Positions 33,731-51,792 of a DNA stretch of 64,000 nucleotides are shown in pieces. The notes under the pieces were generated by a model that did no database searches, was not told the DNA's origin, and saw only the letters and a program-made list of their open reading frames with translations. How positions within the stretch are numbered: the stretch's first letter is position 1; the number at the start of each line of letters is the position of its first letter. Both the position numbers and the translations under genes were made by a program. Origin of the DNA: a virus; the IMG/VR virus record IMGVR_UViG_3300021599_000885; one strand, written 5' to 3'.

Positions 33731-35107
33731 TCACATGAGATTCTGAACCTTGACTCTTCTGTAGTAACGGTTGACGTTCTGGGTAAGAGCGCCAGCGCCA
33801 ACGGTGGTTCCTTCCGCGAATGGGTTTGCGACCATGCCGTAGCGGGTCTTAAAGCCAATCTTGGGCTGGAAGGTGTCCTGACCAACGGCACGAACCATTT
33901 GGAGAGGAACGTATGGGCAGTAGAAGAGACCAGCGTCATAAGGTGAAGAACCCTTATAACCAGCAACGTAGTACTGATCAGCACCAAGGTTTGCCGAATA
34001 TGGGTCAATGTAGACGCGGAACTTACCAGCAAGAATACCTGCGAAGGTGTTGCCGGTGTCGTCAACGTTGAGGTTAGCGTTGAGTGCAGGGGTGTAATCA
34101 AGTACACCAGCCATGGTGAGGGCGGAAGCAACGTCTGCGGAGCAGAGGATCATGTTGCCCTTTCCTCTACGAGTTCTCTGGGCGATAGCGTTAGCGTCAC
34201 GCTCGATCTGGAAGATCAGACCCTTGAACTTCTCAACTGACCAACGACCGTTGGAGTCAACGTCGAGGTCGAAAGCGCCTTGGGTAGCTACGTTAGTAGC
34301 AGCACCTTGCTCAGCAACTCTGTAGATGGTTCTGATGACTTCGCGGTTGATCTCAGCAAGAATCTCAGTTGAGAGAATGTTTGCGAGTTCAGCCTCAGCA
34401 TTCAGACCATGAATTGCCTTGAGGTCCTGAGCGAGTTCTAACGAGTACTCAGCTTTCAGAGCTCTTGACTTGGCGGTAACGGTGACCTTCTCGATCGAGA
34501 ATGCCATTTCGTTGAACGCACCGATGCCGTCACCTAGGTTCTCAGCATCGTCGGTACGCAGACCCTGACCTACGCTGTAGGTGTCGCCAACAATACCTGA
34601 AGTTGGGTTAAGAGCAGCAGGGTTTGAACCAGCCTGACCGGTTGTACCCATACCAACAGCACCAGCGGTGAAACCAGCGGTACGGTTGAAGTTGCTGTCC
34701 TGACCAGAGAATGCGGAATCTGCCTCATTGAACAGAGCTTCAGCACCACCTTGGGTCTTATACTTGGAGCGCATTGCGAAGATGAGTCCAGTAGGACCAC
34801 TCATTGGTTGAACGCCAGCGAGGTCATAAGCGACCAGGTTAGGCATTGAACGACGGATCAGGGAGATCAGAACTGGATCGAAACCAGCAACGGTCTGACC
34901 ACCTGCTGAGGTGTAACCACCGTTACCAACAGCGTTGGTTGGTGATTCGTGAAGGAATTCGCGCTCTTCACGAAGAGCGATTTCTTGGTTCTCCAGGAGT
35001 TGAGCAGTAACGGCTCTACGATGGGAATCCTTGATAGGATCCATACCATCATAGTCCAGAAGGGGTGCCCACTTCTCCTGCAGATGCTCGTTTAGGGGCA
35101 TTTGCAT
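33731..35107 (-). CDS. gp23: Major capsid protein gp23
   Basis: GVQPMSGPTGLIFAMR, KSRALKAEYSLELAQDLKAIHGL, FQPKIGFKTRYG. Confidence 0.98.
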   Translation of the reverse strand: MQMPLNEHLQEKWAPLLDYDGMDPIKDSHRRAVTAQLLENQEIALREEREFLHESPTNAVGNGGYTSAGGQTVAGFDPVLISLIRRSMPNLVAYDLAGVQPMSGPTGLIFAMRSKYKTQGGAEALFNEADSAFSGQDSNFNRTAGFTAGAVGMGTTGQAGSNPAALNPTSGIVGDTYSVGQGLRTDDAENLGDGIGAFNEMAFSIEKVTVTAKSRALKAEYSLELAQDLKAIHGLNAEAELANILSTEILAEINREVIRTIYRVAEQGAATNVATQGAFDLDVDSNGRWSVEKFKGLIFQIERDANAIAQRTRRGKGNMILCSADVASALTMAGVLDYTPALNANLNVDDTGNTFAGILAGKFRVYIDPYSANLGADQYYVAGYKGSSPYDAGLFYCPYVPLQMVRAVGQDTFQPKIGFKTRYGMVANPFAEGTTVGAGALTQNVNRYYRRVKVQNLM

Positions 35108-35158: not shown

Positions 35159-36226
35159 TCACTTTTTAGCGACTCTTCTCAGAGTATCCATGTAGGATTC
35201 CATTAATGGTGATGCTGATACTTGACCAACAACACTGGTGCCTTCAGAGATAGTCTCTGAGTGGTCTCTTTGAGCGCCAGCGTGCTCTGGGAAGTAAGAC
35301 TTCTTCAGAGTTACTAGCTTCTCACGATAGTCTGACTCACTTTCAAACTCAACATTTTCGGCAAGAGTAGCGAGCTTGTCTTTCTGAGAAAGGGCAAGTC
35401 CTTCAGCGACTTCTGCAAAGATTACATCAGCAACTGACTCGGCTAATCTCCTATTAAGAGCAACATTTCTTTCGATTTGCTCGTTGAGTTTAGACTCCAT
35501 TTCATCTAGTTTATCTACCATGCTCTCGATTACATCATATCTATCTTCAGGGATGGTTACATAATGTTCTTCAAAAAGACCCTTCATTCCAGCGAGGAAT
35601 GATTCGGTCATTTCAGTCTTAAGACCGTGCTCAACAGCGAGAGCGTTCTCTTGGATCCACTCATCGGCAACATACTCAAGGTATGCGTCGAGTCTTTCGG
35701 TCAGACCTTCTTTAATAGTTTCAATCTCTTCTACAAGAACAGTCTCGTATGCAGATTGAAGATTTTCCTTGATTTCGTTAACCTTTGATGTGATAGCAGC
35801 TTCGAAAATAGTGCGTGCCTTCTCTTGGAATTCCTCAGAAAGCTCTTCGCCTTCGAAGAGAGCTTGAACATCTTCTTCGATGTTGAACTCAGGTGCTTCC
35901 TCTTCGGTGACGACTTCCTCTGCAGAGATTTCTTCTTCAGAGATTTCCTCTTCAGTTACCTCTTCTTCTTCAGCAACAACTTCTTGCTCTTCATCAGCCT
36001 CAACTTCCTCGGCTCTAGCGGCTCTGGCGTTGACTACATTTTTGACTTGAGCAAGGGTCTTGCCTGGGGTCTCCAGTTTATTGGAGTCGTCGTCGGGTCT
36101 TGAGTTCTCGGGGGTAGGACCACCAAGATCCTCATAAGGAACACCGCTAGCTTGCATTGGTTCAGCAGGTGCAGCGTTTTGTGTTACTACGTTTTCCATT
36201 TCCTGTAAGTTGCTATCAGCGGACAT
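35159..36226 (-). CDS. gp22: Prohead core scaffold gp22
   Basis: Very acidic; LSEEFQEKARTIFEAA, YLEYVADEW; position between gp21 and gp23. Confidence 0.93.
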   Translation of the reverse strand: MSADSNLQEMENVVTQNAAPAEPMQASGVPYEDLGGPTPENSRPDDDSNKLETPGKTLAQVKNVVNARAARAEEVEADEEQEVVAEEEEVTEEEISEEEISAEEVVTEEEAPEFNIEEDVQALFEGEELSEEFQEKARTIFEAAITSKVNEIKENLQSAYETVLVEEIETIKEGLTERLDAYLEYVADEWIQENALAVEHGLKTEMTESFLAGMKGLFEEHYVTIPEDRYDVIESMVDKLDEMESKLNEQIERNVALNRRLAESVADVIFAEVAEGLALSQKDKLATLAENVEFESESDYREKLVTLKKSYFPEHAGAQRDHSETISEGTSVVGQVSASPLMESYMDTLRRVAKK

Positions 36227-36269: not shown

Positions 36270-36920
36270 TCAGAGATTTGATAAGAATTCGTTGAAAAGA
36301 TTTAACTTATACTCTTCAAGCATTCTTTGATCGACAAGAGTATTAATACGTCTTTTTGTATTCTCTGCGAGTTGTTCACGAAGGATACCACCTTCCCAAA
36401 CCCACTCTTTACCTTCCATAATTCCATTGACGAAAGCATCAGGAGCGGAAGGATCGGCAACGATATCAGCAGCAGTTGCTAACTGGAAATCTTCACCAAC
36501 AATCTTGTGACCTTCGTTGGTCATTCTAAGTGAACCAACACCACGAGAAGAAACGCCAAGCATAACGCCAGACTCAAGAAGTGACTTAGCGATTTTGCCC
36601 ATTGGGGTTTCAAGAATCTGTGCCTTACCTACAAAGTTATTACCTTCTTGGTTGAGGCAAGTGATCTTGTGTGAAACACGATCAAGATTAACGGTAGGAC
36701 CATCTGGGTGACCAAGTTCGCCAAGAGCACGACCCTTACAGACGAAATTTTCGTTATAACGGGTTACTTCTTTAGAAAGAGTATCGATGGGGTACATTCT
36801 CCCATTGCGATTCTTGATCTCACCTTGAAGAAATACACCTTCGATGTATAACCTCTTGTTAGGACCTTTACCTTCGGTGATAACTTTTACGTTAGTTACT
36901 TCTTCTGTGATTAGTTTCAT
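36270..36920 (-). CDS. gp21: Prohead protease gp21
   Basis: NRNGRMY, GELGHP, GVSSRGVGS, DIVADPSAPDA. Confidence 0.96.
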   Translation of the reverse strand: MKLITEEVTNVKVITEGKGPNKRLYIEGVFLQGEIKNRNGRMYPIDTLSKEVTRYNENFVCKGRALGELGHPDGPTVNLDRVSHKITCLNQEGNNFVGKAQILETPMGKIAKSLLESGVMLGVSSRGVGSLRMTNEGHKIVGEDFQLATAADIVADPSAPDAFVNGIMEGKEWVWEGGILREQLAENTKRRINTLVDQRMLEEYKLNLFNEFLSNL

Positions 36921-42247: not shown

Positions 42248-43893
42248 TAATAATATTCCCACATATAAGATCTATCACCATACTCATCGGTATGCCATCT
42301 ATCTCCATCACTATCAACAAAAGTGCTTTCATCCAAACCATCCAATATAAATCCAAATGGAGCCATATCTTGTTCTATTTGATTTTTTTGCTCTTCATAA
42401 ATTCTTTTACGAATATCATTATCGGTCATCTCTTTGAAGTATTCTTGTGCTACCAACCAAGAAAATATAACCAAGCACATCGCTAGGTCATCATTACATC
42501 CTTCCTCTGCCTCAAAGGAATTATGTCTTTGAGCAAATGTTGTAAGTTCCGATATAATATCGTAATCTACAGTCAATAACTTATCATCCTCCATAAGAGT
42601 TTTTAGGTTAGAGCAACCCAACTTCTTCACTGCTGCAGTCATTCTTACACCCATCTGCGATTTCTTACCAGAGAAACCATGCCCGATAACTTGTCCGGCA
42701 CGACCTCTCATTGCAGCCATAAGCATATTTTCATATTCTAAATCATAGTGTAAAATATTAGCAACTTGTTCCCCAATATCATTAACCTCGATAAGTAACC
42801 AAGCATTATTATATCCCTTAGCAACATCGATAATAACACTTGGAAATAACATTGGTTTTATTTCATTATTTCTATACTTCGCCACTACCTTATATGGAAA
42901 CTGTGTGATATCAAAAATAATAAATGCAGAGTAATCATTTCCAAGACCACGAGCAACGTCTACGGTGATTAAATAATTGTGCTCTTCCCGTGGTTTTTCA
43001 TAAACGTCTAATCCGGCATTCCTTTTTATTGGATTTTCATAAACAAGATTTCTAAGTTTTGATGGGTTGATGAGAGTGTTGACTGATCCTAAGAATTCAC
43101 ACTCAAACTCAACCTTGAATTGTTGTTCTGAGGTGTTAGCAATAGTTTGCTCTTTCCATGCATCATCTCTACCGGGAACTTCTGACCAGTGAACATCAGT
43201 GGGAACATATTCATTTTTATTTCTTTCCGCATCATGCCACATGCGGTAGAAATGGTTCATACCCCTAGGGGTAGAAACAATAATTACCTTTGTGCTCTGT
43301 CCAGAAGAAATAGTAGGATAAACAGAGGCAAAGAAGTCATCAGCAATGTGATTTGGGATGAACGCGAACTCGTCGAGAAAGATGACATTATAGGATCCGC
43401 CTCGGACAGCAGATGACGAAGTAGAGTTAGACGAAATTTTGGAGCCATTTTCTAATTCTAAAGATCCTTTATTCCATGATATAATACCCTGCTGCATCCA
43501 CTTCGGCAAGTTTTCATAAGCAAGTTGTAATCTTCCTAGAAGATCTCTAGCAGTAGATGCTTTGTTGGCTAGAATAGCTATATTAACATTGTCGTTGAAA
43601 ACAGCATAATGTAACAAATATGAAACACAAGTCGTAGATTTACCCGTCTGACGGGGCATTTTACAGATATTAAATCTATTTTTGTGGAAATTACTAATCA
43701 GTTTCTCTTGGAATGGGTACATCTCAAAAGGCACCAGACCATGATCAAGCGACACGATCTTGATATAATTTCTAGCAAAATAAACTGGATCTTCTTTACA
43801 CTTTAAGAACTCAATAATTCTATCTTCAGTCCATTCAATGGGAGTATTAGCTTTTTTGAGCAGAGGATTGCCCAAATAAACATCACTAGACAT
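42247..43893 (-). CDS. gp17: Terminase large subunit gp17
   Basis: YLGNPLLKK, PRQTGKST, FLDEFAF, VSTP, DVARG, NDDL; start ATG at 43893 or 43899. Confidence 0.97.
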   Translation of the reverse strand: MSSDVYLGNPLLKKANTPIEWTEDRIIEFLKCKEDPVYFARNYIKIVSLDHGLVPFEMYPFQEKLISNFHKNRFNICKMPRQTGKSTTCVSYLLHYAVFNDNVNIAILANKASTARDLLGRLQLAYENLPKWMQQGIISWNKGSLELENGSKISSNSTSSSAVRGGSYNVIFLDEFAFIPNHIADDFFASVYPTISSGQSTKVIIVSTPRGMNHFYRMWHDAERNKNEYVPTDVHWSEVPGRDDAWKEQTIANTSEQQFKVEFECEFLGSVNTLINPSKLRNLVYENPIKRNAGLDVYEKPREEHNYLITVDVARGLGNDYSAFIIFDITQFPYKVVAKYRNNEIKPMLFPSVIIDVAKGYNNAWLLIEVNDIGEQVANILHYDLEYENMLMAAMRGRAGQVIGHGFSGKKSQMGVRMTAAVKKLGCSNLKTLMEDDKLLTVDYDIISELTTFAQRHNSFEAEEGCNDDLAMCLVIFSWLVAQEYFKEMTDNDIRKRIYEEQKNQIEQDMAPFGFILDGLDESTFVDSDGDRWHTDEYGDRSYMWEYY

Positions 43894-44371
43894 ATTCATA
43901 CCCCCTTTCTGGACCCCAATGTTTCATTCTGTAAGATAATCCCTGTATCGTTATACCTACATCATCTGCTGCCTCTTGTTGAGAAATATATATTTTTCCA
44001 TTTATAGAAACTTTTTTGCTATTGGGGTGCTTCTCTCCACCCTCATACTTATGGCCAAAAGAGCGACCTTTCAGTGCCTCGCTTTTCTTTCTACAAGTTT
44101 CTTTACTATGCTTCCTACCAATATTTTTTTGAGTTGCCTTATTTAAATTTTCCATAAACCAAGCATCATTGTGCCACCCACACTTATGTATCTCTCTACT
44201 ACAAACATATAAATGCTCTGGTATATCTTTTCCACCTTCACATCTTGGTGGGAAATGATGAACATCCATACCTCTCATCTGTTCCCAAGTTAATCCCCAA
44301 TTTTTTCGAGCAATATTTCTTACTGTTTTAGGACTTAACCTTTCCCTTGGAACTTTAATAATAGCAGACAC
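43886..44371 (-). CDS. HNH homing endonuclease with NUMOD3-like and HTH-like DNA-binding modules
   Basis: DVHHFPPRCEGGKDIPEHLYVCSREIH; GRKHSKETCRKKSEALKG; INGKIYISQQEAADDVGI. Confidence 0.85.
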   Translation of the reverse strand: MSAIIKVPRERLSPKTVRNIARKNWGLTWEQMRGMDVHHFPPRCEGGKDIPEHLYVCSREIHKCGWHNDAWFMENLNKATQKNIGRKHSKETCRKKSEALKGRSFGHKYEGGEKHPNSKKVSINGKIYISQQEAADDVGITIQGLSYRMKHWGPERGYEYV

Positions 44372-44392: not shown

Positions 44393-44400
44393 TATTTATA
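44393..44400 (-). promoter_or_regulatory. Late promoter TATAAATA at the start of the HNH cassette
   Basis: tatttata on the + strand, overlapping the stop of the gp17 stub. Confidence 0.75.
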
Positions 44401-44433: not shown

Positions 44434-46017
44434 TTAATCTTCTACATAAATGAACGAAGCACTAGCAGCAGTAATATTAGATGTTGATGAAATTACTGCG
44501 GTTATAAAACTATTTGGTGGAACATGAAGTCCAATTTCAGATAAATCAACATCAATGGTTGAGTTATCTGATACATGAAAAGCAGCAATAGGAGGTATTG
44601 ATTGTGCTGCTAATGTAAATAATCCAGTGCTATCTTGAGTTGCATAAAGTGATGCATTAAAATCACTTTGAGTAGTCCATCTCAAATAATTTGTAAGAAC
44701 TGGGTTCCAATATATGCGAATAACTGCTGGGTCTCCTGTTGTATTTACTGATGCAGTAAGTCTTCTAGGAAGTAAATCTCTTGTATTAATCTTACCTTGA
44801 TAAACAAGTTTATTTTTAAGAGAAATGAGATGATATAAAGAACCAGGAGTGTTCATACTATCATTTCTGGTTGTAGTCACTGAATATGGAAGTTTTGTTC
44901 TTTCAACAATACCTTCAATCGCACCAAGGAAAGAAGAACCTCTACAAGTAACAACACCTACACCACCACCTAGATTTGCAGCAACATATCCAATCTTCAT
45001 TGATGGATTGTCTAGGTGTGGTAGTTGGTTTCTATTTGAATAATGTTCGTGATGGAAGAAAATCATATCCCCATTTAGAGGATTTTCAATCGCATATCTA
45101 ATCTCACCAGAACCTAACCAACGGAAGTTGATTTGATATACATTTAACTTAGATGGGTCTAGAGTAATACCAGAATATCCAGTTCCATCAAGTTTATCTA
45201 AATTAAAATCTTCTTGGAAAGTCCAGTTTTCTGTTTGTACTACCCCTGCCTGTCTTAATAATGCATTAAAAGATATTGTTGCGGTGCTTGTAATATCAAA
45301 AGTTCCAGTTTGAGGTCCAAGAGATGTTGCTAAAAATCTTAATCTTGATTGGTCATATTCAACCAAATACAAAGCATTAAAGAGTGCTTGTGCTCTTAAT
45401 CCTTGTGCGAGTTGAGAAAGATTTCCTGCAAGTGTTCCTGAATTTACTGTTACCGCAGTAAAAGAAGTTCCATTCAGAGTGACTGTTACATTTCCATTAT
45501 CAAGTGTGGTGAAGTCATAACCCTGAATTCTTGCTTTACCACCATTTGCACGAAGAACACCAAACTTCCCATTGGTGTGTGCATATCCAATTTGAATTGC
45601 TTGTTCTTGATTGAATAGTCCTGCTCTTTGTGTAAATCCTACTGGGTTATTTGAGAACGAACCAGTAAATCTGCAAACAACACCTTGTCCTGGACGGTAT
45701 CTAATAAAGTTCGTACTTCTGATTACACCATAAGAATTTGCAGAAGAACCAGCACCAACTATAAATGTAGAGTTTGCATGAGTAGCAATTCCTGTTGCAC
45801 TGAATGTATATGTCTCAAACTCTCTTGGGTCTAATCCATAGACAGCATCTGCCTGAATTTTTGGTGTAATTGGGACTGCAATATTCTCACCAAAAGCAGA
45901 TTTAGAACAAGCACCTTCATTTAGAATATTTCCATACTCATCAGCACGGAGATAAACTTCGTGAAGTGTTCTTTCTTGATTTAAGTAGTCTTGTGTAGAC
46001 TTATTCCACTGAGCCAT
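44434..46017 (-). CDS. Probable virion structural protein
   Basis: 527 aa, beta-rich, in the late head/packaging cluster; RYRPGQG and FRWLGSG motifs. Confidence 0.6.
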   Translation of the reverse strand: MAQWNKSTQDYLNQERTLHEVYLRADEYGNILNEGACSKSAFGENIAVPITPKIQADAVYGLDPREFETYTFSATGIATHANSTFIVGAGSSANSYGVIRSTNFIRYRPGQGVVCRFTGSFSNNPVGFTQRAGLFNQEQAIQIGYAHTNGKFGVLRANGGKARIQGYDFTTLDNGNVTVTLNGTSFTAVTVNSGTLAGNLSQLAQGLRAQALFNALYLVEYDQSRLRFLATSLGPQTGTFDITSTATISFNALLRQAGVVQTENWTFQEDFNLDKLDGTGYSGITLDPSKLNVYQINFRWLGSGEIRYAIENPLNGDMIFFHHEHYSNRNQLPHLDNPSMKIGYVAANLGGGVGVVTCRGSSFLGAIEGIVERTKLPYSVTTTRNDSMNTPGSLYHLISLKNKLVYQGKINTRDLLPRRLTASVNTTGDPAVIRIYWNPVLTNYLRWTTQSDFNASLYATQDSTGLFTLAAQSIPPIAAFHVSDNSTIDVDLSEIGLHVPPNSFITAVISSTSNITAASASFIYVED

Positions 46018-46331
46018 TATTCACTCCACGATAATCTTTCTGGTTGATACCTCTGAGAACTCTTAATTTTTAAAGAACTTTGAGATTGTGATGGATAGAT
46101 ATTGTGAACAATCGCACCAGGATATTCTCCTTGAAGTTGTTCAGCGAGAGCGTTCTTATCCATCATAGAACCTTCAACCTCAAGACGATACATCTTTCCT
46201 TCCCAAACTACATCAGCAAAGAAAGACTCACTTGCGGTCTCTGGTTCTTGTGAACCACCTACATTTAAAGTTCCATTAAAATCACCATTGATGGTGATGC
46301 TTTCTTGTAAAAACTGTTGAAAACTTTTCAT
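46017..46331 (-). CDS. Hypothetical protein with capsid-targeting-like N-terminus
   Basis: MKSFQQFLQE start. Confidence 0.7.
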   Translation of the reverse strand: MKSFQQFLQESITINGDFNGTLNVGGSQEPETASESFFADVVWEGKMYRLEVEGSMMDKNALAEQLQGEYPGAIVHNIYPSQSQSSLKIKSSQRYQPERLSWSE

Positions 46332-48034
46332 TAGCATTTCCAGCGACGACGGGCTTTACAAATTGCTTTATCTGGGTCTTTTGAGCAATCAATGTTATGC
46401 ATGTCTTGCTGACCCTTAGAGCGAGCGCAGAAGGACTTTCTACGCTTTGATCTTCCTGGTCCAGGATCTTTCTCAGTTACGGCAGTCTTTAGTTTAGAAC
46501 CAGGATTCTCACGACGATAAGCATTAACTGCTTTCTGACTCATACCATCAGTTTTGTCTGACTTATTTACTTTCTGCCAATCTTCTTCCAGTTCTTCTCT
46601 CCAGTTAGAGTATCCTTCTTTTACACAGTTGGGAACCATTTTCCCACCCTTCTTTTTCATACCAACTTGCTTGTAACCATCCCAGCAAGGATCTTCTTTT
46701 GCTTCGGCAAAAGCATCTGTAGAAACACCATCAGCATAAGATGATTGACTTGGAGTTGCTCTCTTAAATCTAGGTTTTCTGCTTAGATTAGAGGGGAGTT
46801 GATTGTCTCCTACTTTTTTACCTAATGGATATTTTGGATCATATGCACTTTGCTCACTAACAAGAGGTTCTGGTTTAATCAGATCAATTGTTTCAATTTC
46901 AAGTGCCTTGAAGTCATCTCTCCAGTTGGAAAACTCATATCCCTCTTTTTTAGTTCCCCAGTTATCAGCACCAACTTTACGGCACTTAACTAATGCACCA
47001 GATGCATATGCACTTGGCCAAACGTCATATCTTGCCTTTACTTTCTTATAGCAAGCATCTTTTTTCTCATCAATCAATTGACCCTTAACTTCTGTCTCTT
47101 GTCTGAGTAACTTTAATGCTTCACGAGTAGCATCGTTGTGTCGTTGCATACCATATGAAGCATGACCAATACCAGTTCCAGGCTGAATTTTTTCACCTTT
47201 CTTAGCAGCTTCTACACCAGATTTCGAAGCCTGTTGTGCTCTACGAATTGCAGCAAGTCCAAGAGCACCAGCACCAAGAGCAAGACCACCAGCAACTAAA
47301 GGAGCAAGTTCATCAAGTTGCTCACCTTTTGGTTCAAAGTGTTGTGCTAGTTTTAGTTTACTATCACTAGGAAGTTCTAAAACATCTTCAGGTCTACCAC
47401 CAACTCCACCAGCAAGTTTTTTATTATCTCTAAACATTCTCCTAAGTGCATCAGCTCCACTTTCTCCGGGAAGAAGTTTAACTTGTTCTCTCACTATCTT
47501 TGCTTTACCCTTTCTATTTGGGTTTGGATCTTCTTTACGCTTCTTCTTTGCTCTCTTCTCTCTTTCATCCTTACTCATTGCTGCACGATCATCAGCATCG
47601 CGGCAGAATGGTTTGGTTTTTTGTCCTGGTTGTTTGGCACAAGGTTTTCCATCATACTTACCACCTGCCTGAACCCATCCACCACCAGAAAACCAGTCAC
47701 GGAGTGAGTAGTCTTTATCTTTAGCGGACTTGCCATCACGCTTACCTTCTTCCATATAAGAAGCAGCAGCATCTGTGTTGTGCTCCGTATCAGTCAACTT
47801 TGCTTGAACCCAAGCAGGAAGGTTATCTGCGTCAGTTTTCTTTGCAAGAACTCTTGCTACTTTTTGTAGATTATCAATAGACTTTTTGACCTGAGTCTTA
47901 GCCATTGAGACTTCATGGTCTTTTTCTTTTGCTTCATTCATTTTCTTTTTACGTCCCTGACAATGAGCACGCTGAGAAAACCCTTTTGGGTTGTCGCAAT
48001 CAATCGATTTTTTATATTTCTCAGACCAACCCAT
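46331..48034 (-). CDS. Modular basic, Cys-rich protein (putative polyprotein)
   Basis: 567 aa of short modules with paired Cys separated by hydrophobic-x-E; late promoter at about 48057-48065. Confidence 0.8.
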   Translation of the reverse strand: MGWSEKYKKSIDCDNPKGFSQRAHCQGRKKKMNEAKEKDHEVSMAKTQVKKSIDNLQKVARVLAKKTDADNLPAWVQAKLTDTEHNTDAAASYMEEGKRDGKSAKDKDYSLRDWFSGGGWVQAGGKYDGKPCAKQPGQKTKPFCRDADDRAAMSKDEREKRAKKKRKEDPNPNRKGKAKIVREQVKLLPGESGADALRRMFRDNKKLAGGVGGRPEDVLELPSDSKLKLAQHFEPKGEQLDELAPLVAGGLALGAGALGLAAIRRAQQASKSGVEAAKKGEKIQPGTGIGHASYGMQRHNDATREALKLLRQETEVKGQLIDEKKDACYKKVKARYDVWPSAYASGALVKCRKVGADNWGTKKEGYEFSNWRDDFKALEIETIDLIKPEPLVSEQSAYDPKYPLGKKVGDNQLPSNLSRKPRFKRATPSQSSYADGVSTDAFAEAKEDPCWDGYKQVGMKKKGGKMVPNCVKEGYSNWREELEEDWQKVNKSDKTDGMSQKAVNAYRRENPGSKLKTAVTEKDPGPGRSKRRKSFCARSKGQQDMHNIDCSKDPDKAICKARRRWKC

Positions 48035-48477: not shown

Positions 48478-49278
48478 TTAAATATCAGTTTGTTGTGTTG
48501 GACTGTAAGACTTAGAATCTCCAAAATATTCCCAAGTTTCTGTGAATCCAAAGTCGTCGCCAGGATCTGCGTTTATTGGATCTGGAACTGCTGTATATCT
48601 AACTTCTCTCTTCGCAGTTTGTGTATTTGTATCTGAGTACATATCAACAATAACCTTACGAATGAGACCTTCTGGATTATCAGCAACAGGACCGAATAGA
48701 TAAGTTTTAGCGGTAAACTGTAAAGTATATATTAATGCTCTTCTTGTGGAGAAGTCTCCTTCATAGTCATCTTGCATTCCAACGCTGTTTAGAACTACTG
48801 GAATATCTCTTTTTTCTCCAATTGAGTCTACTAAGTCTATGGTTAAATTAAACGATGGTTGGAAGTAAGGTAAAATTTGCTCAACAATTTGTAAAGCATC
48901 ATCATTCAACTTACAAAAAATACTCAGTTCAAATCCAATGTTATATGGAACAGGCATAAAAACCTTTTTCATTCGATCATTATCATCGACCGCTCTAAAA
49001 GTCTGAGTTATACCAGTTTTTCTTGAGGCATCATATTCAATAGAAGTCATTTCAAACGACATTCTTGGTAAAGTAATTTGAACTGGTTTGTCCAGGTTTG
49101 CTTGCTGCTCAAGTCTTGCTAGAAACTTTTGAGAAGGACCATAAGCTAGAGGAACACTTACAACACTATTGATATTTCCACTGCCATCTTTGTGTTTAAT
49201 ATCAATTTGGTTAAATAGAGTTCCAAATGCTATAATAGTTTTACGAATTATTTCGTGATAGTAATAAGTTCCTAACAT
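48478..49278 (-). CDS. gp15: Tail sheath stabiliser gp15
   Basis: YYHEIIRK...FGTLFN...VPLAYGP...LPRMSFE...QILPYFQP. Confidence 0.93.
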   Translation of the reverse strand: MLGTYYYHEIIRKTIIAFGTLFNQIDIKHKDGSGNINSVVSVPLAYGPSQKFLARLEQQANLDKPVQITLPRMSFEMTSIEYDASRKTGITQTFRAVDDNDRMKKVFMPVPYNIGFELSIFCKLNDDALQIVEQILPYFQPSFNLTIDLVDSIGEKRDIPVVLNSVGMQDDYEGDFSTRRALIYTLQFTAKTYLFGPVADNPEGLIRKVIVDMYSDTNTQTAKREVRYTAVPDPINADPGDDFGFTETWEYFGDSKSYSPTQQTDI

Positions 49279-50657
49279 TAGTAAGTACCGAATGGATTAG
49301 ACTGTGAAAAGTCCAAAATGAGATCTGCTGCTGCTTCAATTTCTTCATTTTGTCTATATTTATCTGTCTCTGTATTCGCCACAGAAACTCTAGTTTCATA
49401 AACAGCACCAGATTTTGATCCAGTAATTGTTTCACCCGGATAGAACGAACCAGTTACAATACCAACTCTTAGAATATTGGTATCTGTATCCCAGTTTTTA
49501 ACTCTTGCTGTAGATCCAGATCTCGATCCAGTTACAAGTTCGTTGAACCAGAATGTTCCAATACCAGTCGTCGCGGCAGCTGCAACTGTTACTGTTGGTG
49601 CAGAGAAGAATCCTGCTCCAGCATCTGTAATATAAATTGCACTGACAGTTCCAGCAGCACTTACAATAGAAGTTGCAGCTGCTGGTAGATTTGGCGACAG
49701 TGATGGTAGTGAGAAAGAAACCGATGGCGCAGTAGAGTAACCAGCTCCACCATCGTTAACAACAACATTAACAACACCTTTTCTATCGGTAATGATTCCA
49801 CAAGTAGCAGCTGCACCAGTTCCACCACCACCAGTAATAGTGATAGTTGGTGCTACAGTGTACCCAGTACCAGCATGAGTAATAAGAATTTCTTTAATAG
49901 AAGTTATACTATTTCTAGTTGTTGTAATAGCAACTGCTTGAGCGTTGGTTCCTCCGGAAGGTGCCGTTGTAATTGCAACTGTTGGTGTTCCTGTAAATCC
50001 AGATCCATCGTTGTTGAGGAAAATTTGTCTTATATAACCAGTCCCAATACTGGCAGTTGCTGTTGCTCTTGTTCCACTGGAATACATTGATAGATCAATA
50101 ATGTTTCCAATATCCTCAAGAACTTCATCTATTTCGTCGATAGAAGTATCTAGAACTTCATCCTCATATTCGAAGAGTTCACATTGAAGTTCATAAACAT
50201 AATTTTTTCCCAGTTGATAGAAAGGTTTTTCATGCTCAACAAACTTTACTTCAAACAATCTCTTTCCAAGTGGGAAGTATACTAAATCACCTTCTCTTGG
50301 TCTATCAAAAACAGTAATTTCTGTATCATCTTCACCGTCCAAAAATGGCGAGATGAAATCCTCAAATCTTTCTTTTGAGATTACTAATGATACTTCATCC
50401 CTAACACTAACACCAAACTTGGTCATAATATCTCCAGCACCACTATAACCATCATAGTTATTGAGATATGCTTCTAATAAAAAATTATCGTCAAAAACGG
50501 ATGATTGTATCTCTTCAATGATAGTTTGTTTTCTTACAAACTTTCTTGGAATATAAGTTACTTCGATACCATATATTTTGAGTTGTTCATTGATCAACTC
50601 TTGTATTAATCTTTGTTCTCCAGAAGAACCTTGTAAGAAAAAGGGATTAAGTGCCAT
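49278..50657 (-). CDS. gp14: Neck protein gp14 with Gly/Thr-rich insertion
   Basis: RPREGDLVYFP, FEVKFVEHEKPFYQLG, DFSQSNPFG. Confidence 0.9.
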   Translation of the reverse strand: MALNPFFLQGSSGEQRLIQELINEQLKIYGIEVTYIPRKFVRKQTIIEEIQSSVFDDNFLLEAYLNNYDGYSGAGDIMTKFGVSVRDEVSLVISKERFEDFISPFLDGEDDTEITVFDRPREGDLVYFPLGKRLFEVKFVEHEKPFYQLGKNYVYELQCELFEYEDEVLDTSIDEIDEVLEDIGNIIDLSMYSSGTRATATASIGTGYIRQIFLNNDGSGFTGTPTVAITTAPSGGTNAQAVAITTTRNSITSIKEILITHAGTGYTVAPTITITGGGGTGAAATCGIITDRKGVVNVVVNDGGAGYSTAPSVSFSLPSLSPNLPAAATSIVSAAGTVSAIYITDAGAGFFSAPTVTVAAAATTGIGTFWFNELVTGSRSGSTARVKNWDTDTNILRVGIVTGSFYPGETITGSKSGAVYETRVSVANTETDKYRQNEEIEAAADLILDFSQSNPFGTY

Positions 50658-51769: not shown

Positions 51770-51792
51770 ATATTTATAATCGCTAGTTAATT

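Follow-up and report, generated by a model that had tools for sequence, protein, structure and literature searches.

What might a 567-residue protein do that reads as a string of dissimilar small proteins and is encoded, in a T4-like cyanomyovirus, between the genes for the small (gp16) and the large terminase (gp17)? The question is raised by the virus record IMG/VR IMGVR_UViG_3300021599_000885, of which a stretch of 64,000 nucleotides was analyzed (hereafter the window). The open reading frame (ORF) occupies positions 46331-48034 on the minus strand (567 amino acids (aa) plus stop), and its product, P0001, is made up of five basic modules with paired cysteines, acidic spacers and one hydrophobic module (Table 1). 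Combining family-wide sequence comparisons, structure prediction and published virion data, we infer, with a probability of about 0.65, that P0001 is a polyprotein of internal head proteins, located in the head and cut there by the prohead protease gp21. The combination of shuffled modules and protease-type motifs suggests a packaged peptide cargo in ocean viruses.

Module shuffling in a large family

P0001 belongs to a large family that is annotated merely as 'hypothetical' or 'structural protein'. An exhaustive HMMER search returned 8074 cluster representatives at E<=1e-3 (clusters at 50% identity) and word-indexed searches gave at least 8000 candidates, with database matches covering pieces of the query. 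Homology breakpoints, computed in query coordinates without reference to Glu, cluster at residues 31-40, 96-105, 176-188, 311-325, 361-375, 391-400, 441-450 and 471-486, and these clusters coincide with the module boundaries proposed in a first-pass annotation of the window. Seven conserved modules were mapped by phmmer in 268 relatives. The canonical module order is common and is accompanied by many alternatives, including M2-M4-M3-M5, M3-M2, M1b behind M3, duplicated M4 and absent modules. Stand-alone versions exist as well, i.e. viral protein clusters of ~85 aa for M2 and proteins of 89-300 aa for DUF6321, the family to which M5 belongs. By these comparisons the modules are independent evolutionary units that are shuffled, duplicated, lost and found alone, in line with the modular and expandable string that the first-pass annotation had envisaged.

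In the relatives P0168, P0180, P0256 (L007:4404-7061) and P0241, DUF192 (PF02643) or DUF5661 (PF18905) is placed between mini-modules; the module string can therefore host larger domains.

A hydrophobic-x-Glu motif at module junctions

The first-pass annotation had interpreted the Glu residues that close most modules as prohead-protease sites, and all site motifs quoted there, from KMNE34 to ELEE484, are present (Table 1). Within P0001 alone, 11 [LIVMF]-x-E sites are found compared to 6.2 in shuffles (P=0.03), three of them of the strict L/I-x-E type. Eight of the 11 fall inside the homology-breakpoint zones, which account for 18% of the sequence; the hypergeometric P conditioned on Glu positions is only 0.05, because nearly half of all P0001 Glu lie in these zones. 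The density of the motif in P0001 is hence a modest signal by itself, and the signal is positional.

Across the family the pattern is far clearer. We collected 433 junction contexts, anchored on the module core, and retained only those upstream contexts in which 10 or more of 18 residues differ. A site of the type [LIVMF]-x-E whose Glu lies no more than seven residues before the module core is present in 328 of them (76%), falling to 23% between positions -14 and -8, where a second, tandem site is then found 8-14 residues upstream, and to 6% between -21 and -15. Local nine-residue shuffling yields a mean of 117 contexts (27%; standard deviation 8.3, maximum 144 in 1000 trials), placing the observed count at z ~25. 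The coincidence of boundaries and sites in homologues, and an excess over what Glu content predicts, are consequently supported at the family level (76% versus 27%), with the single-protein test reaching only P=0.05. No comparable junction peak is given by controls in which P1 is Asp or Lys or by the reversed motif, the latter showing weaker peaks a few residues upstream. At P3, Val (32%) and Leu (32%) are most frequent, followed by Ile (22%), Met (9%) and Phe (5%). The specificity of T4 gp21 invoked by the first-pass annotation, L/I-X-E, is matched by the junction motif in its general form, and is widened here to Val, Met and Phe at P3.

The motif is also sharply placed. It sits at a single position in 96% of M1, 71% of M2 and 70% of M5 contexts, and in 24 of 25 M1 contexts it directly precedes xWS. 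Overall, the contexts of M1, M2, M4 and M5 carry it in 90-96% of cases (M2 90%, M4 91%, M5 92%), those of M3 in 70% and those of M1b in 49%. The sequences preceding M1, such as GGGVSE, KMNEEKVE, CQLDE, EEQVTE and QQGVAE, are unrelated to each other and are each followed by xWSxKYK; therefore, the motif belongs to the junction and not to a conserved neighbor. The GWS start of M1, preceded by V-S-E in relatives, follows the initiator Met in P0001. This M-GWSEKYK start, with the initiator Met standing where the Glu would be, is shared by 38 proteins including P0001, and other module-initial proteins begin M-AKEKDHE or M-RDGKSAKD. Judging from such starts, the motif is dispensable for the module itself.

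The uneven quality of the junctions bears on how many of them would be used. Conceivably, gp21 cuts only a few sites, for example those at the Y-S-N-W-R spacers or behind a leader, leaving two or three multi-module basic proteins. Such limited processing would fit the spread in motif frequency from 90-96% at M1, M2, M4 and M5 through 70% at M3 and 49% at M1b down to 18% at M3b, and also the T4 internal proteins, which are cut only once (PMC8442874). Against this, most junction types have the motif, and tandem sites occur in 23% of contexts, comparable to the redundant sites of phiKZ propeptides (PMC9026906). We consider limited processing improbable, and cutting at the module junctions in general the better account.

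Link to gp21 and to capsid-targeting leaders

T4 gp21 cuts after Glu in L/I-X-E (PMC9026906). The gp21 gene and the matching gp23 site that the first-pass annotation had reported for the window are both confirmed, the former as a Peptidase_S77 (E=1e-37), the latter as EREFLHE54 followed by SPT in gp23 (33731-35107, minus strand). The density of [LIVMF]-x-E per 100 aa is highest in the window for the scaffold gp22 (35159-36226, minus strand; 8.7) and for gp21 (6.0), as is the excess over shuffles (z 3.9 and 3.0, respectively). This fits, since their T4 homologues are known gp21 substrates, and by analogy agrees with gp21 processing itself and the scaffold being degraded, as happens in T4.

In T4, the internal proteins are basic, present at ~1000 per head and equipped, at the N-terminus, with a 10-residue sequence for capsid targeting (CTS), namely MKTYQEFIAE (PMC8442874), in which positions 4 and 7, both aromatic, are used for targeting and positions 8 and 10 for processing (PMC8442874, PMC9026906). 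Placing Asp at position 10 of the T4 CTS prevents processing but does not prevent targeting (PMC9026906). Leaders of this kind are found directly before modules of the present family: MKTYSQFIEE, then GKKK, in P-SSM7 PSSM7_194 (T4-GC119 according to its authors); MKNFAQYIEE, then DWQKK, in the stand-alone DUF6321 protein gp114 of P-TIM40; MKEFNQFVKE, then M2, in the metagenomic P0268; and MKTFKAFIEE, then an M4-like hairpin and M5, in P0350. CTS-like leaders directly before modules are also present in P0363 and P0241. An initiator Met, a CTS leader and an internal junction, the latter two ending in hydrophobic-x-Glu, can thus replace one another at a given module boundary, the pattern expected from fusing separate internal-protein genes into a polyprotein. 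Some internal junctions resemble a CTS themselves, for example those with SF-x-QF-x-x-E (Syn9, S-SM1) or with the [YF]-S-[ND]-W-R cassette. As a general targeting element, an aromatic-x-x-aromatic cassette was considered and rejected: it is enriched, but found at only 28 of the 328 junctions.

These data also allow us to weigh the main rival, an uncleaved virion protein in which flexible acidic linkers tether the modules as beads on a string and hydrophobic-x-Glu is a non-proteolytic linker or N-cap feature. Predicted beads and disordered linkers (see below) fit this arrangement equally well, most family members are devoid of a CTS, and the S-SM1 virion mass spectrometry reports presence only. 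A tether does not account as readily for one three-residue motif that precedes mutually unrelated modules, is dispensable at the protein start, where the initiator Met replaces the Glu, is interchangeable with CTS leaders ending in the same motif, and agrees with the specificity of a protease whose gene lies at a distance of 10 kb (PMC9026906). We therefore regard the tether as unlikely, if still ahead of limited processing and of a role outside the capsid.

The ORF directly downstream of P0001, whose start overlaps the P0001 stop, has a CTS-type leader too (Table 1), with M1, K2, F4, Q6, F7 and E10 showing no variation among four cyanophages; its product is a likely single-module internal head protein.

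A further CTS-like leader, MKNFFQFLSE, was noted on a cytidylyltransferase-like protein of 413 aa (PF01467; 5148-6389, minus strand). Its family, T4-GC190, is reported in S-SM1 virions, which suggests that this enzyme is packaged into the head by the same CTS route.

Presence in virions

The S-SM1 homologue SSM1_115 aligns to P0001 over M2, M3, M4 and M5 (BLASTP E=2e-40) and represents T4-GC119, a family detected by 13 peptide counts in S-SM1 virions after purification and absent from S-PM2 (PMC3037559 Table S8). In addition, S-SCSM1 gp029 bears the annotation 'virion protein'; the authors of that record analyzed virions purified in CsCl by mass spectrometry. These virion data are counts or annotation, not peptide-level (supplements of PMC3037559 and PMC9602691). 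The neighbor of SSM1_115, SSM1_114 (T4-GC403), was tried as the N-terminal part of the family and rejected, as it has no similarity.

The detection in virions bears on whether P0001 is head cargo in the first place. It could instead be a late DNA- or nucleoid-binding or other cytoplasmic protein that co-purifies with virions, any cut being made by a host or other Glu-specific protease. Its very basic nature (pI 9.6), the stand-alone DUF6321 gene that a Pelagibacter podophage carries in a non-structural neighborhood, and the Syn9 virions, which yielded no peptides of the homologue, would all agree with such a role. On the other hand, the gene position is conserved within the structural and packaging operon, virion detection is reported for two phages (S-SM1, and S-SCSM1 by annotation), and family members carry CTS-type leaders, making a non-cargo role very unlikely compared to that of an internal head protein.

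Anatomy and predicted structure of P0001

P0001, a chain of 63 kDa, has an isoelectric point (pI) of 9.57, with module net charges of +3 to +13 and acidic spacers. Of its 116 tryptic peptides, only 27 have a length of 7-30 aa. Due to the Cys positions 13/25, 132/144, 328/351, 450/470 and 536/550/559/567, each of the five basic modules has an even number of cysteines; these twelve positions bear out the pairing described in the first-pass annotation, as do GYEFSNWRDDF at residue 365 and GYSNWREEL at residue 474 its claim of duplicated acidic spacers. Among 100 homologues no variation is seen at C132 and C144, and C328, C351, C450, C470, C536 and C567 are nearly invariant. A hypothetical cut after each proposed Glu would yield basic pieces of 3.3-9.8 kDa with pI 9.1-10.1, along with two acidic spacers (pI ~4.3) and a few variable pieces.

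The DUF6321 (PF19846) match covers residues 493-565 at 44.4 bits in the whole protein (gathering cut-off 28.5), and M5 searched alone reaches 50.6 bits (E=3.2e-13). The DUF5872 (PF19197) match at residues 329-369 remains below its gathering cut-off of 27.5 (17 bits, E=0.009); per-module Pfam searches at E<=5 added nothing to DUF6321 beyond this weak match.

The hydrophobic stretch LAPLVAGGLALGAGALGLAAIRR begins at residue 243, directly after L-D-E. Conservation around this LAPLVAGG... stretch is poor, yet the module recurs: uncharged Gly/Ala/Leu-rich stretches of at least 17 residues are present in 32 of 271 relatives (~12%). In 16 of 25 unique cases the stretch directly follows the junction motif (L-D-E or L-N-E), usually behind a Y-S-N-W-R cassette, and is itself followed by Lys or Arg. 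The 'hydrophobic bacteriocin-like helix' of the first-pass annotation hence stands as a recurrent Gly/Ala-rich membrane-type stretch, the epithet 'bacteriocin-like' being supported by no test.

An AlphaFold2 model based on 100 homologues (predicted template modeling score 0.29) has modules with a predicted local distance difference test score (pLDDT) of 75-94, and pLDDT below 50 at residues 225-322, 363-446 and 475-491. P0001 is thus predicted to be a chain of folded beads on a string, in which the proposed sites fall within disordered linkers or at their edges. In this model M4 forms a beta-hairpin whose ends lie near Cys450 and Cys470, and M5 modeled alone adopts four helices (pLDDT 84). Foldseek with the full model against the PDB returned nothing at E<=0.001, the only matches being non-significant 23-residue alpha-defensin-like hairpins (E ~5-10). 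For M5, the best hit of VIA-align to 48,161 chains was uninformative (Z 4.6), BFVD returned only other DUF6321 proteins, and a profile search of the sequences of solved structures gave no match at E<=1.

Table 1 Features of the P0001 locus, with positions in the window and residue numbers of P0001.
Feature	Position	Strand	Residues	Remarks
Whole ORF P0001	46331..48034	-		candidate internal-head polyprotein; T4-GC119 / phrog_727 / DUF6321-containing family
Module M1	47933..48034	-	1-34	basic; Cys13/Cys25; ends KMNE34; starts at initiator Met
Module M1b	47747..47932	-	35-96	helical hairpin (predicted), no Cys; ends YMEE96; pLDDT 85-94
Module M2	47486..47746	-	97-183	net +13; invariant Cys132/Cys144; ends IVRE183
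Variable stretch	47309..47485	-	184-242	poorly conserved; has VLE220; ends QLDE242
Hydrophobic module	47066..47308	-	243-323	uncharged 21-residue Gly/Ala/Leu stretch, then basic residues; ends LIDE323
Module M3	46943..47065	-	324-364	net +7; Cys328/Cys351; weak DUF5872 similarity; ends TKKE364
Acidic spacer, [YF]-S-N-W-R cassette	46853..46942	-	365-394	net -5; ends LVSE394; pLDDT <50
Variable linker	46703..46852	-	395-444	disordered (predicted); ends AFAE444
Module M4	46616..46702	-	445-473	predicted beta-hairpin closed by Cys450/Cys470; ends CVKE473; duplicated in some relatives
Second acidic Y-S-N-W-R spacer	46583..46615	-	474-484	ends ELEE484
Module M5	46334..46582	-	485-567	DUF6321; net +13; four Cys; nearly always C-terminal in relatives
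Downstream 104-aa ORF	46017..46331	-		phrog_1742; start overlaps P0001 stop; CTS-type leader MKSFQQFLQE
gp21 prohead protease	36270..36920	-		Peptidase_S77 PF03420, E=1.1e-37; phrog_207; proposed processing enzyme
TATAAATA late-promoter motif	51771..51778	-		heads gp13-gp14-gp15-gp16-polyprotein transcription unit

Proposed mechanism

We propose that the P0001 system would operate as follows. P0001 would be transcribed late, together with the neck and terminase genes, and the precursor would be taken into the prohead, probably through its basic modules or the [YF]-S-N-W-R or CTS-like cassettes binding to the acidic gp22 core. There, gp21 would cut after the Glu of [LIVMF]-x-E at the module junctions, releasing ~10 pieces: five small basic mini-proteins, perhaps disulfide-stapled, and one peptide with a free hydrophobic N-terminus derived from the hydrophobic module, among others. 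The short acidic spacers would leave the head, like T4 propeptides, and the basic pieces would be retained with the packaged DNA, neutralizing its charge, with at least some of them entering the host along with it.

A further-reaching version is possible, yet we advance it tentatively and hold it clearly less probable than the polyprotein reading as such. The pieces, i.e. basic hairpins and helical modules, perhaps disulfide-stapled, and a Gly/Ala-rich membrane-inserting peptide freed by the cut, may constitute a combinatorial mini-protein library that is injected together with the DNA, as a payload for host takeover or anti-defense. The polyprotein may then have arisen through in-frame fusion of CTS-bearing internal-protein genes, the SF-x-QF-x-x-E and [YF]-S-N-W-R elements being CTS relics that now would act as internal targeting and cleavage elements.

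Several points weigh against a cleaved head polyprotein. Cleavage is inferred from sequence for every family member. P0001 has no N-terminal CTS, starting MGWSEKYKK, and only a few % of its relatives have one, which makes the targeting step a weak point of the reading. At the M3b junction of the family the motif is found in only 18% of contexts, with Lys at P3, and TKKE364 of P0001 is likewise atypical, with Lys at P3, and doubtful as a cleavage site. Val, Met and Phe at P3 fall outside the T4 L/I rule, and the overall motif density in P0001 is but 11 sites where 6.2 are expected. In principle, the junction motif could be a structural cap belonging to each module. T4-GC119 was not detected in Syn9 virions by mass spectrometry (PMC3037559 Table S8). 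Finally, DUF6321 occurs alone, as a 94-aa protein (L004:3938-4222), in Pelagibacter phage Skadi-8, a 35-kb podophage in which the gene lies among small non-structural genes, and is therefore not tied to capsids everywhere.

Comparison with known systems

The closest parallel are the internal head proteins of T4. In both cases a T4-like phage with a Peptidase_S77 makes highly basic proteins, a homologue of P0001 being present in virions; both groups are diverse and fast-evolving, with conservation restricted to the processing and targeting motif, and the leader of some members of the present family is identical to the T4 CTS in 7 of 10 residues. The T4 proteins are, however, encoded by single-module genes and cut once behind the N-terminal CTS, whereas P0001 combines up to ~10 unrelated mini-modules in one chain with a cleavage-type motif at internal junctions, does not have an N-terminal CTS and shows no sequence similarity to IPI, IPII or IPIII. 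Several Glu sites per protein are cut by the prohead protease in the T4 core proteins gp22, gp67 and gp68 and in head proteins of phiKZ, 201phi2-1 and SPN3US, where the giant-phage motif is S/A-X-E (PMC9026906). Some fragments are retained in the head and cleavage sites are redundant in these cases, but the substrates are scaffold or inner-body proteins rather than shuffled, independently folding Cys-paired mini-proteins.

Polyvalent proteins (Iyer, Burroughs, Anand, de Souza and Aravind 2017, PMC5512222) likewise unite multiple unrelated domains per polypeptide in variable architectures. They also follow the same logic of packaging and delivery with the DNA, arms-race shuffling and proteolytic release, of which packaging, delivery and release are presumed for P0001. 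In contrast to P0001, whose 30-90-aa modules have no recognizable enzymatic domain and whose presumed protease acts in trans, polyvalent proteins are large and contain enzymatic effector domains and usually an embedded peptidase (MPTase). In P0001, Pfam detects nothing but DUF6321, with no domain of the polyvalent set and no peptidase. DUF6321 (PF19846) and DUF5872 (PF19197) are function-unassigned families and neither entry describes a polyprotein context; a literature search for DUF6321 and for capsid-targeting sequences or internal proteins in cyanophages returned no description beyond 'structural protein'.

T4-like cyanophages are among the most abundant ocean viruses. If the polyprotein reading is correct, the T4 paradigm of CTS-bearing internal proteins processed by gp21 would extend from single genes to an expandable polyprotein, and part of the hyperplastic gp16-gp17 region would be explained. 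Mature ends would be defined for several orphan families of mini-proteins, among them DUF6321 and the DUF5872-like module, and a large natural set of small proteins delivered into cyanobacteria, candidates for anti-defense or takeover functions, would be identified. A direct prediction for mass spectrometry is N-termini located right after the junction Glu residues.

Genomic context

P0001 lies in a late structural block in which the neighboring genes are all on the minus strand, in the order gp13, gp14, gp15, gp16, P0001, a 104-106-aa ORF, a 527-aa ORF, an endonuclease, gp17, gp18, gp19, gp20, gp21, gp22 and gp23. The first-pass annotation gave no strand for 46331-48034; a plus-strand gene was ruled out there, the plus translation being full of stops. 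The gene order around P0001 is shared with S-T4, S-SRM01, S-SCSM1 and one metagenomic contig, and cyanomyoviruses are known to be hyperplastic between gp16 and gp17 (PMC3037559). All seven copies of TATAAATA in the window are on the coding strand. No second copy of the polyprotein is present in the 98-kb record. The 527-aa neighbor, a 'virion structural protein' (phrog_1645), was considered as a relative of P0001 and rejected as unrelated.

Between this 527-aa structural gene and gp17, overlapping the gp17 start, a 161-aa ORF (43886-44371, minus strand) with an I-TevI-type DNA-binding domain (phrog_314) encodes a homing endonuclease (HNH/I-TevI-like); a TATAAATA motif is located just upstream of it at 44393-44400. 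In the neck protein gp14 (49278-50657, minus strand; 459 aa), the match to the T4 neck-protein family is limited to the first ~180 residues. The part from residue ~190 to ~430 has its matches in repeat-like stretches of large PHROGs for virion structural, baseplate and fibre proteins, and by these matches looks like an added C-terminal domain.

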